NCBI RefSeq assembly: GCF_041886205.1
Contig: NZ_CP169030.1
Origin: Escherichia coli
Lineage (GTDB): Bacteria > Pseudomonadota > Gammaproteobacteria > Enterobacterales > Enterobacteriaceae
Length of the DNA stretch: 64,000 nucleotides
Strand: one strand, 5' to 3'
Shown here: positions 10,762 through 16,071 of the stretch, in pieces
How the letters are laid out: the number at the start of each line of letters is the position of its first letter
Numbering within the stretch: position 1 is the stretch's first letter
Program-made: the position numbers and the translations under genes
The notes under the pieces: model-generated
Databases searched by the model: none
What the model was told of the DNA's origin: nothing
Seen by the model: the letters and a program-made list of their open reading frames with translations, nothing else

Positions 10762-13700
10762 ATGAAAGAATTAAAAAAGATCAATAGATATATAATGTGT
10801 TTCTTTTTGGGATCTCGCCTAGCATATGCTGAAAATATAGACAGCAACACTGTCATTAGTGATGGAAACATCTCGGGCTCATTAAATATAGGTATTAAGA
10901 ATAATGCCAATGTTGATATTAATGGCACCGTAAATATTAAAGATTATTTTTCGGTAGCTACTTGCAATGGTCAATCTAGCACCTGCCCTGAAGGTGGATT
11001 AATTGCATCTGCAAATATTGATAAATCAGCAAGTGTTGGTGCAAGCGTTACTATTGTAGGTGACTCTTCAAAGGGGGAATTAAATATAGATGGTGGTAGC
11101 ACTCTATATACACAGCAATTATGGGTTTCTGGGAATGATAATGACAAGACCAGTAATGTCAGTGATGACAGTAATGGTTCATTGAAAATTAACAATGGAA
11201 GCAATGTTTTTGTCGTATCATCTCAAGATGATACGCCATTTAAAACCAACCCAGTAAAATGGAACCAAAATATTATTTCACAAGGAAATAATATAACAGA
11301 TGGGACGGTTTCCTCCGGGGATTTAGTCTTGGGTAAAACAGGCAATGGCATTATTGACATAGATAACAATTCAAAACTAGATGTAAAAAATGATGTGGTT
11401 GTATCTACGGGAGTAGATGGTATTCCTAATGAAAAGCCTTCTGTTATAAATATAAAAAATGGAAGTAATTTCTTGATTCATGGGGACATGAAAGGAGGCA
11501 TTTCTGCTGCAGGCCAGTTAGAGTTAAATATGGACAATAGTTCAAACCTGCATGTTGATAAAAGTATTGCTGTAGGTATTGGGAGTAAATCTAATATTTC
11601 TTTAAGCGCGGCTAGTGGAAGCTCTATATCCTCAACCGGGGATTTTACTGTAGCTACAGGAAATAACTCGAATGCTAAACTAGAATTAGATGCCTCAAAC
11701 CTGTCAGTGAATGGAGTCTCTACCATCGGAAGTGGCGATGGCTCCATAACTAAATTTGATATTAAGAATGGCTCTGTTGTAACAAGCATCAGTGATATGA
11801 CTTTGGCTAAAGGTAAAGGTACACAGGCTAATATAAATATATCCTCTTCGGAGTTAAATACAGGCTCGCTATCAGTTGGTGAGGGGGATAATGCTGATGT
11901 CAAAATGACCGGTTCAGGAGCTTCTGTCAGCAGTAAAAAGACCTTCACTGTTGCAAAAGGTAACAATGCATCAGCGACGCTGAATTACACTGGTTCAAAG
12001 ATAGATATCGGTAGTGGTTATATCGGAGAGGGTGAGTCTGCTAAGACCCAGCTGGAGCTGAATAATTCAGCACTGACTGCCAGTGGTAAGGTATTTATCG
12101 GGCAGGGAAATACAACCCAAACAAACCTGACATTAAATGATAAGTCGTCAGTAAATGTGAGCGGCGAGATGTCAGTGGCCCAGGGAAGTTCTGCTTCAGT
12201 AGATGTGACAGCCACTAATGCAGTGCTGTCTGCTGACTCTCTGTCTCTGGGGGGAGGTGAGGCTGCTAAAGTCACAATGATCGGTTCGGGAGCTACTGTC
12301 AGCAGTAAAAATACCTTCACTGTCGCAAAAGGTAATAATGCATCAGCGACGCTGGATTACACTGGTTCAAAGATAGATATCGGTAGTGGTTATATCGGAG
12401 AGGGTGAGTCTGCTAAGACCCAGCTGGAGCTGAATAATTCAGCACTGACTGCCAGTGGTAAGGTATTTATCGGGCAGGGAAATACAACCCAAACAAACCT
12501 GACATTAAATGATAAGTCGTCAGTAAATGTGAGCGGCGAGATGTCAGTGGCCCAGGGAAGTTCTGCTTCGGTAGATGTGACAATCACTAATGCAGTGCTG
12601 TCTGCTGACTCTCTGTCTCTGGGGGGAGGTGAGGCTGCTAAAGTCACAATGACCGGAAACAGGGCAACGATTAGCAGCGGCAATACTTTCACGGTCGCAA
12701 AAGGTAATAACGCATCTGCAACACTGGACTACTCTGATTCAAAAATTAATATCGGTAATGGATATATCGGTGGGGGTGAAAAAGCCCAGACAGTGCTGAC
12801 GTTGAAGGATTCTGCGTTAGCTGCAACCGGTGATGTAATTATGGGACAGGGGCAGGAAACTCAGACAGACCTGACGCTAAGCCCCCAGTCATCTATAAAA
12901 GTATCCGGGAATATGTCTATTGCGCAAGGTAATGCCGCTTCAGCCAAAGTGATTGTGGACAATGCAGATTTATCTGCGAACTCCATGTCGATTGGTGAAG
13001 GCGATACAGCAGCAGTGACAATGACCGGAAACGGAGCAACGATTAGCAGCGGCAATACTTTTACGGTCGCAAGAGGTAATAACGCATCTGCAACACTGGA
13101 CTACTCTGATTCAAAAATTAATATCGGTAATGGATATATCGGTGGGGGTGAAAAAGCCCAGACAGTGCTGACGTTGAAGGATTCTGCGTTAGCTGCAACC
13201 GGTGATGTAATTATGGGACAGGGGCAGGAAACTCAGACAGACCTGACGCTAAGCCCCCAGTCATCCATAAAAGTATCCGGGAATATGTCTATTGCGCAAG
13301 GTAATGCCGCTTCAGCCAAAGTGATTGTGGACAATGCAGATTTATCTGCGAACTCCATGTCGATTGGTGAAGGCGATACAGCAGCAGTGACAATGACCGG
13401 AAACGGAGCAACGATTAGCAGCGGCAATACTTTTACGGTCGCAAGAGGTAATAACGCATCTGCAACGCTGGACTACTCTGATTCAAAAATTAATATCGGT
13501 AATGGATATATCGGTGTGGGCGAAAAATCTCATACATTACTAAAACTAGACAACTCAACTTTCCATGCCGCTGGGAATATTGATATAGGTAAAGGCAGCT
13601 CCACTATAGCTAATGTTTCTGTCGGGGCTGGTAGTAACATGTCAATAAAAGGGAATGCTAGTATTGGCGTTGGAGATCAGGCTAAAGCAAAATTTTCAGT

Positions 13701-16071: not shown

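Follow-up and report, generated by a model that had tools for sequence, protein, structure and literature searches.

A plasmid-borne autotransporter gene and its tandem array

The window analysed here is a stretch of 64,000 nucleotides (nt) of Escherichia coli DNA (contig NZ_CP169030.1, assembly GCF_041886205.1) from an F-like IncF plasmid, with RepFIB repB at its start, ompP, two autotransporter genes, insertion sequence (IS) elements and, further on, tra genes. Positions 10762-16071 on the plus strand form a single uninterrupted open reading frame (ORF) of 1769 amino acids (aa), which we take to be the gene of the protein that UniProt names YuaO, the upstream autotransporter presumably being its YuaQ. 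This gene probably encodes a classical (type Va) autotransporter of F and F-like IncF plasmids, in which a tandem array of 372-nt units varies by in-register unequal exchange.

The F-plasmid counterpart (NC_002483, 21541-26850; 10771-16080 in the F plasmid of EMG2) is 98.3% identical to the gene of the window, and plasmid pC4101 from the bovine E. coli C41 carries a gene 100% identical to it. Window and pC4101 share 99.5% identity over the first 18 kb and are rearranged beyond, so that the window is a relative of pC4101 from another record. The gene is rare, with a match in 53 of 5426 complete E. coli genomes and 90 of 72,556 plasmids. Literature searches on yuaO, yuaQ, ychA/ycbB, p1303_109 and F-plasmid autotransporters returned no functional study and one descriptive sentence, in the paper from which the gene names ycbB and ychA are taken (PMC9997739).

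The gene and its parts, all on the plus strand, are as follows.

10762..16071, yuaO/ychA-type autotransporter gene, an intact ORF with its counterpart in F
10762..10830, putative Sec signal peptide, MKELKKINRYIMCFFLGSRLAYA then EN, read by eye from the translation
10831..11898, "head" of the passenger at its N-terminus (aa 24-379), where alleles diverge most
11899-12270, repeat unit A1 (124 aa), placed by in-register tiling
12271-12642, repeat unit A2, 97% nt identity to A1
12643-13014, repeat unit B1, 65% nt identity to A
13015-13386, repeat unit B2, 98% nt identity to B1
13387-13758, terminal unit T, with its first ~130 nt of B type and the rest diverged, shared by all the alleles read
13759..14733, distal passenger, containing degenerate copies of the module that are older (matches to a profile of the units; β-helix in the model)
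14734..16068, translocation unit, comprising a pertactin-like autochaperone junction (about 14815-15072), a linker and the outer-membrane β-barrel (TIGR01414, PF03212)

Tandem Repeats Finder reports a period of exactly 372 nt over 11892-12779 (2.4 copies, 91%, score 1487) and over 12114-13527 (3.8 copies, 86%, score 1473). Tiled in register from the first V(K/T)M(T/I)G motif, the array resolves into four full units and a partial fifth (T), which bears out the claim of the first-pass annotation, made from the letters of the DNA, that four or more in-frame 124-aa units of two subtypes stand there with this exact period; a unit of 372 nt equals 3 x 124 nt and hence keeps the frame. The same annotation spoke of near-perfect nucleotide identity, a description that is apt within a subtype, where A1 and A2 share 0.97 and B1 and B2 share 0.98 of their positions (7-11 differences per 372 nt), and too strong between subtypes, where A and B agree at 0.65-0.66. 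Terminal unit T agrees with B at 0.60-0.62 overall, its B-type identity being about 0.99 up to about position 13510 and dropping after it. Elsewhere in the gene, identity at a lag of 372 nt reaches only 0.2-0.4, and the array is therefore far beyond chance.

A hidden Markov model (HMM) of units A, B and C also finds degenerate copies at aa 1025-1133 and 1110-1223 (E 3e-20 and 1e-6) and at aa 287-378 (5e-15); judging by these matches, degenerate copies of the module appear to flank the young array on both sides. The unit HMM has no matches in YuaQ. As a paralogous source of the repeats, YuaQ was rejected on this result and on BLASTP, in which it is 21% identical to YuaO and aligns in the C-terminal part alone (aa 1260-1638, E 2e-17), from the autochaperone to halfway through the barrel.

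Copy-number variation among natural plasmids

Twelve alleles were fetched from public complete plasmid records and every unit was classified, giving 13 alleles with the window included. Among the 60 matches listed for the whole gene, the query span is 5310 bp in 43, 4938 in 14, 4926 in 2 and 4566 in 1, and a query of the array plus one flanking unit on each side yields spans of 2604, 2232, 1860 and 1116 nt. The 13 alleles fall into eight architectures of one to five units, and each has an uninterrupted ORF (3.8-5.3 kb, about 40% G+C).

AABBT, 1769 aa: window, F
AAABT, 1769 aa: CP057480
AABT, 1645 aa: CP057046
ABBT, 1645 aa: CP083264, p1303_109
A'A'A'T, 1645 aa: NZ_CP128615
ABB'T (4-aa deletion), 1641 aa: CP099271
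ABT, 1521 aa: CP057448, CP057622, CP057842, pSTEC299_1
T only, 1273 aa: CP057880

Unit by unit, A2 is missing from the alleles at loci L002, L007, L014 and L003 and present in an extra copy at L005, and a single B unit stands at L003, L005, L006, L014, L015 and L017. Passenger length thus varies among isolates in 372-nt steps, as the first-pass annotation had anticipated, the outcome that it named as refuting being a constant repeat number.

Outside the array, the alleles were compared over a backbone of 3450 nt, made up of a 1137-nt head and a 2313-nt tail. On the backbone of the window type, with 0-3 differences in the head and 0-9 in the tail, three architectures occur (AABBT, ABBT and AABT); window and CP083264 have zero differences in the 3450 nt, one A unit being the sole difference between them. 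Five architectures occur on the F-type backbone, where the head has at most 3 differences and the tail at most 2; a third backbone, with 1 difference in the head and 10 in the tail, bears ABT and T. Because each of these backbones bears several architectures, at least seven independent unit changes are required, on backbones 0-11 substitutions apart in 3450 nt. The same architectures recur in different countries and projects: ABBT, for example, comes from both Germany and China, and ABT from the UK as well as China.

Laboratory plasmids behave differently from this natural series. At least 20 records of laboratory F, F' and Hfr, from many groups, are all 5309-5310 bp with five units, which indicates that complete-genome pipelines normally recover five and argues against a general collapse in assembly. 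Laboratory F lineages have been propagated separately for decades, several of them in recA+ hosts; their constancy shows an array stable across decades of separate propagation and, therefore, no rapid switch.

Domain architecture and structure model

The N-terminus, MKELKKINRYIMCFFLGSRLAYA, presents a basic n-region, a hydrophobic core and an A-Y-A cleavage motif before EN, features that by eye suggest a putative signal peptide; in some records the start codon is annotated 11 codons downstream. At the other end, aa 1325-1769 score 297 bits (cut-off 16, E 2e-88) against the NCBIfam model of the autotransporter barrel, TIGR01414, in an alignment that covers model positions 2-432 of 432, Pfam PF03212 (Pertactin) matches aa ~1352-1437 (E 7e-5), and the protein ends in ...NYYF. 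The barrel domain is thus intact, in agreement with the earlier description of an autotransporter and against the loss of the barrel that would have spoken for a non-functional gene. A match to PF03797 is precomputed for the homologue P0122, and hmmscan of YuaO aa 1001-1769 against Pfam does not list that family. Searches of Protein Data Bank (PDB) sequences with the full-length protein and with its C-terminal 470 aa returned nothing meaningful.

Against 1.84 billion cluster representatives, the repeat region has no more than 14 matches at E <= 1e-3, which makes for a very narrow passenger family and offers no deep alignment. An AlphaFold2 (AF2) model of aa 24-1200, made from an 8-sequence alignment, has a mean predicted local distance difference test (pLDDT) score of 93.2, is all β-strand and forms one continuous β-helix, with the repeats lying in the passenger as the first-pass annotation placed them; the head is modelled as β-helix plus some lower-confidence loops. 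The strand pattern has a period of 124 residues, in which each unit supplies five rungs (their first residues in the model are 356, 381, 403, 428 and 454), and peaks of the sequence autocorrelation at 25 and 50/51 aa match the modelled rungs. The passenger, of ~1300 aa, is accordingly modelled as a right-handed β-helix in which each module would supply five rungs of ~25 aa. The rise of a β-helix is 4.8 Å per rung and, if this textbook value applies, one module would add about 2.4 nm. Barrel, junction and β-helix passenger agree with the definition of a type Va autotransporter; to these are added a putative signal peptide, read by eye, and a putative surface display.

Recombination footprints and a proposed mechanism

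Several alleles contain units that join parts of two others. The middle unit of the three A units in AAABT has an A2-like 5' end and an A1-like 3' end, AAABT and one of the ABT alleles each have a lone B unit made of B1 (5') joined to B2 (3'), and the sole unit of the T-only allele has the head of A1 joined to T. These hybrid units sit where in-register unequal recombination predicts. In NZ_CP128615, the three A' units are 3-20 nt apart from one another and are therefore genuinely separate copies. The first-pass annotation had offered slipped-strand or homologous recombination as the cause of expansion and contraction; the footprints are those of in-register homologous exchange, and recombination or template switching between long repeats fits them better than classical slipped-strand mispairing of short repeats.

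In the mechanism that we propose, the protein would be exported through a Sec signal peptide, followed in order by the β-helix passenger, the pertactin-like autochaperone junction and a C-terminal barrel that would both export the passenger and anchor it. The middle of the rod would be the young array, whose 372-nt modules are long, 97-98% identical within a subtype and share a conserved head segment across subtypes, so that in-register unequal homologous exchange could add or remove whole modules with the frame kept. Indeed, long near-identical units, a shared head and a length that is a multiple of three together permit gain and loss of whole modules without a break in frame. In natural plasmids the outcome would be rods of one to five modules, spanning a range of about 10 nm, and the pace of change would be that of plasmid diversification, not of rapid switching.

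Selection, mosaicism and a divergent allele

The gene is under purifying selection. The ratio of nonsynonymous to synonymous substitutions (dN/dS) is 0.1-0.4 in head, distal passenger and translocator, and 0.2-0.4 in the head alone, values that, together with thirteen intact ORFs, argue against a decaying gene. Synonymous divergence (dS) between alleles falls steeply along the gene, with values of 0.17-0.32 for the head, 0.05-0.09 for the distal passenger and 0.004-0.02 for the translocator, which points to a recombinational mosaic with a diverse tip. Window and F, for instance, differ at 78 nt in the head and at 1 in the last 2313 nt. Differences between alleles cluster at aa 28-50 and 228-310.

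A more divergent allele, P0121 (L008 307-4659, GCA_027552905.1; 1450 aa), has a passenger ~50% identical and a translocator 96-100% identical to those of the window. It possesses its own 125-aa unit in about 2.6 copies, C1 and C2 being 80% identical. Units within one protein, YuaO or P0121, are closer to each other than to the units of the other protein, a likeness that would be expected from independent amplification or from concerted evolution.

Weighing the interpretation

Several observations count against reading the gene as that of a working autotransporter with a recombining array. The literature searched contains no experiment on the YuaO protein, whose expression, surface display and role in adhesion are putative. 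The ATG at 10762 has no Shine-Dalgarno sequence before it and lies behind an AT-rich region, so the gene may be silent in laboratory conditions. Passenger aa 1-1200 has no match to Pfam, to an NCBIfam passenger family or to a PDB sequence, and the C-terminus of YuaO alone matches no PDB sequence either. For the C-terminal 570 aa, AF2 with an alignment of 5 sequences gave a model of low confidence (pLDDT 45), which was not used; the barrel assignment therefore rests on the profile match. One F-type record, NZ_CP163517.1, has IS2 inserted in the gene, and the whole region can be dispensed with, as it is missing from the F plasmid that strain WG1 carries (PMC9997739). Finally, some contracted alleles could be collapses in assembly; a collapse would give the same B1/B2 hybrid as a real deletion.

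This last point can be generalised into the view that all copy-number differences are artefacts, units of 97-98% identity having been collapsed or mis-joined from a true number that is always five. It finds some footing in the fact that short-read assemblies break inside the gene, the homologue P0122 being cut at contig starts in three assemblies, and in the best 120 protein-database matches, all of the 1645/1634-aa AABT form, a bias that a collapse of B1 and B2 could yield. However, at least 20 independent complete assemblies of laboratory F, from many laboratories, all have five units, and collapse is unable to create either the expanded AAABT with its A2/A1 hybrid middle unit or three A' units that differ by 3-20 nt. 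Nor could it merge A with B or T, which are only ~65% identical, as T-only and ABT would need, and the recurrence of architectures across countries and projects noted above also speaks against it. We regard a wholesale artefact as highly improbable. Almost as improbable is a second view, in which the array is a contingency locus, a fast and reversible length switch resembling phase variation that would produce mixed populations within one culture. Long near-identical tandem repeats in E. coli do delete at measurable frequencies and, with at least seven independent changes on backbones 0-11 substitutions apart, units have there been gained or lost roughly as often as single bases were substituted in all the rest of the gene. 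Yet all the laboratory F, F' and Hfr lineages listed keep five units, every change in the 13 alleles is in frame and so allows no on/off switching, the units alone are involved, with no recombinase target, and Tandem Repeats Finder reported no short-repeat tract in or upstream of the gene.

It is unlikely, though less so than either of these, that the gene is a silent and functionless passenger of the plasmid, with repeat variation as neutral noise in decaying DNA. Such a view would accommodate the missing Shine-Dalgarno sequence and the AT-rich upstream region, the rarity of the gene among genomes and plasmids, the lack of a published phenotype in the literature searched, the absence of the region from the WG1 F plasmid (PMC9997739), the IS2 insertion and a 1-nt deletion in one laboratory record. 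That deletion is found in the NEB Turbo F' record NZ_CP053606.1, where the gene is 1 nt shorter (5309) and annotated as split, which could reflect either true inactivation or a sequencing error. Set against this, all 13 ORFs are intact, dN/dS is 0.1-0.4 in head, distal passenger and translocator, and the unit changes all preserve both frame and register. A functional gene could also vary neutrally in its number of units, and it is only the "functionless" part that these data contradict. We thus favour an intact type Va autotransporter whose array varies by in-register unequal exchange.

What such a protein does can be put forward in conditional terms. The passenger may act as a rod for adhesion or aggregation, with a reach or a set of epitopes that would depend on the number of modules; the label of adhesin, which the first-pass annotation gave as possible, is drawn from the architecture. 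A diverse, mosaic head together with repeated unit changes is compatible with a rod tuned in length and equally with neutral variation. A bolder proposal, which we consider unlikely, is that F carries a length-adjustable surface rod. As the plasmid passes between hosts whose O-antigen or capsule differs in thickness, or under pressure from antibody or phage, recombination among the modules would select the rod length, in steps of about 2.4 nm over about 10 nm, that keeps the variable tip exposed, and the rod would aid aggregation, biofilm or mating pairs, possibly after trimming by OmpP. If true, the best-studied conjugative plasmid would gain an adhesion function of its own that is tunable.

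Comparison with known systems

Within E. coli, the closest comparison is with UpaH of uropathogenic strains, which resembles YuaO in being a large autotransporter with a β-helical passenger built of repeats. UpaH is classed with adhesins that bind host matrix (PMC9289746), and variation in the middle of its gene has been noted (PMC8281228). It is the nearest E. coli example of a surface protein with in-frame tandem modules that vary in number. The two proteins nevertheless share no sequence family, YuaO matching no named NCBIfam autotransporter family. UpaH is chromosomal and its repeats are many, shorter and imperfect, whereas YuaO is plasmid-borne with few long (124-aa) units of two subtypes. 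Moreover, biofilm formation and colonisation by UpaH have experimental evidence, while YuaO is known here from sequence alone.

In structural alignments, the solved β-helix passengers of UpaB, Ag43, TibA, pertactin, Hap and Vag8 are 9-13% identical to that of YuaO, and Foldseek returned nothing significant. The AIDA/Ag43-type repeat is ~19 aa long, unlike the rungs of YuaO at ~25 aa, and Pfam detects no AIDA repeat or PATR family in YuaO aa 1-1200. NF033176 (AIDA-I) and other named adhesin models match YuaQ, not YuaO. A PDB match of YuaO to 4mee (AIDA-I) was rejected, its profile having included YuaQ; YuaO alone finds no AIDA-I chain. No glycosyltransferase or heptosyltransferase of the aah or tibC type is annotated beside YuaO, the neighbours being ompP, the second autotransporter, a hypothetical 231-aa ORF and IS elements. 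Lacking an AIDA repeat or model match and such an enzyme, and with rungs of ~25 aa, YuaO stands outside the AIDA-I and self-associating autotransporter (SAAT) types. The term "AIDA-type" in the first-pass annotation therefore suits only the upstream gene at 5941-10128, whose C-terminal half is AIDA-I-like, and not the YuaO passenger, which matches no family.

A unit that is a multiple of three and 13 of 13 alleles in frame set YuaO apart from phase-variable on/off genes, and in-frame units of high identity, present in different numbers in near-identical alleles, place it among surface proteins of variable repeat number. In alpha C and Rib of group B streptococci and in the pertactin repeat regions of Bordetella, identical long in-frame repeats vary in copy number by recombination, altering size and epitopes, and immune escape by repeat deletion has been shown experimentally for those proteins. 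These systems differ from YuaO in fold, anchoring and organism. YuaO is a previously undescribed example of something familiar, and the conceptual gain is modest, recombination-varied in-frame modules in surface proteins being well known.

Its interest lies rather in its setting. As part of the most intensively studied conjugative plasmid, the gene is present in many laboratory strains with F or F', and an intact, selectively constrained autotransporter gives a handle on what the non-transfer part of F offers its hosts. Additionally, the natural allelic series of 1, 3, 4 and 5 modules could be used to relate passenger length to display through lipopolysaccharide or capsule, to aggregation and to mating. 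There is also a practical warning, in that the array breaks or may collapse in short-read assemblies and gene lengths in draft genomes are unreliable here; the 1645-aa form (AABT), the majority in protein databases, may be inflated by such collapse.

Upstream region and neighbouring genes

The surroundings of the gene comprise the following features.

10129..10761, no strand, AT-rich intergenic region of 633 nt, about 31% G+C, without a recognisable Shine-Dalgarno sequence before the ATG at 10762
5941..10128, plus strand, autotransporter next to yuaO, of yuaQ/ycbB type, whose translocator is AIDA-I-like and which lacks a 372-nt array (NCBIfam, Tandem Repeats Finder)
4345..5292, minus strand, ompP, an omptin outer-membrane protease (NF008222, 616 bits, cut-off 537), annotated ompP in F

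By its composition, 10129-10761 looks like a xenogeneically silenced promoter region. A promoter and terminator scan upstream found sites no commoner than in shuffled sequence and was not used.

YuaQ matches TIGR01414 with 391 bits, and the AIDA-I and ECSE_1600 family models with 335 and 827 bits, both below cut-off (2335 for ECSE_1600). Tandem Repeats Finder shows no DNA array in 5941-10128, in line with the initial remark that the upstream autotransporter has no such repeats. Its RefSeq start lies 79 nt downstream of that of the longest ORF, and in plasmid CP083264 the gene is truncated by IS elements. The ompP gene adjoins both autotransporters and is intact in the window, while in the near-identical pC4101 it is annotated as frameshifted; its adjacency to autotransporters recalls the protease-substrate pair IcsP-IcsA of Shigella.

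About 750 nt downstream of yuaO, in every locus examined, lies a 231-aa ORF (16817-17512 on the plus strand of the window), mostly WP_000286435.1, which has no family match in NCBIfam, Pfam or PADLOC; PADLOC likewise gave no defence-system match for YuaO or YuaQ. At L009, L010 and L011, draft assemblies end inside the passenger of homologue P0122, and the gene therefore breaks short-read assemblies. Behind the P0122 gene at L009 and L010 lie YuaE-like and bactofilin genes together with one for an AraC regulator and an hlyC-RTX-ABC exporter cluster.

Further along the window, at about 30800-35200 (mapped from L012 40551-44944), the annotation of pC4101 places a KAP-family P-loop NTPase beside a TIR-domain protein, together with a vapBC pair; pC4101 continues with genes of the AAA ATPase and HNH endonuclease kinds and with the sulfite reductase operon asrABC. 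These KAP/TIR, vapBC, AAA/HNH and asrABC genes are possible defence and metabolic cargo.

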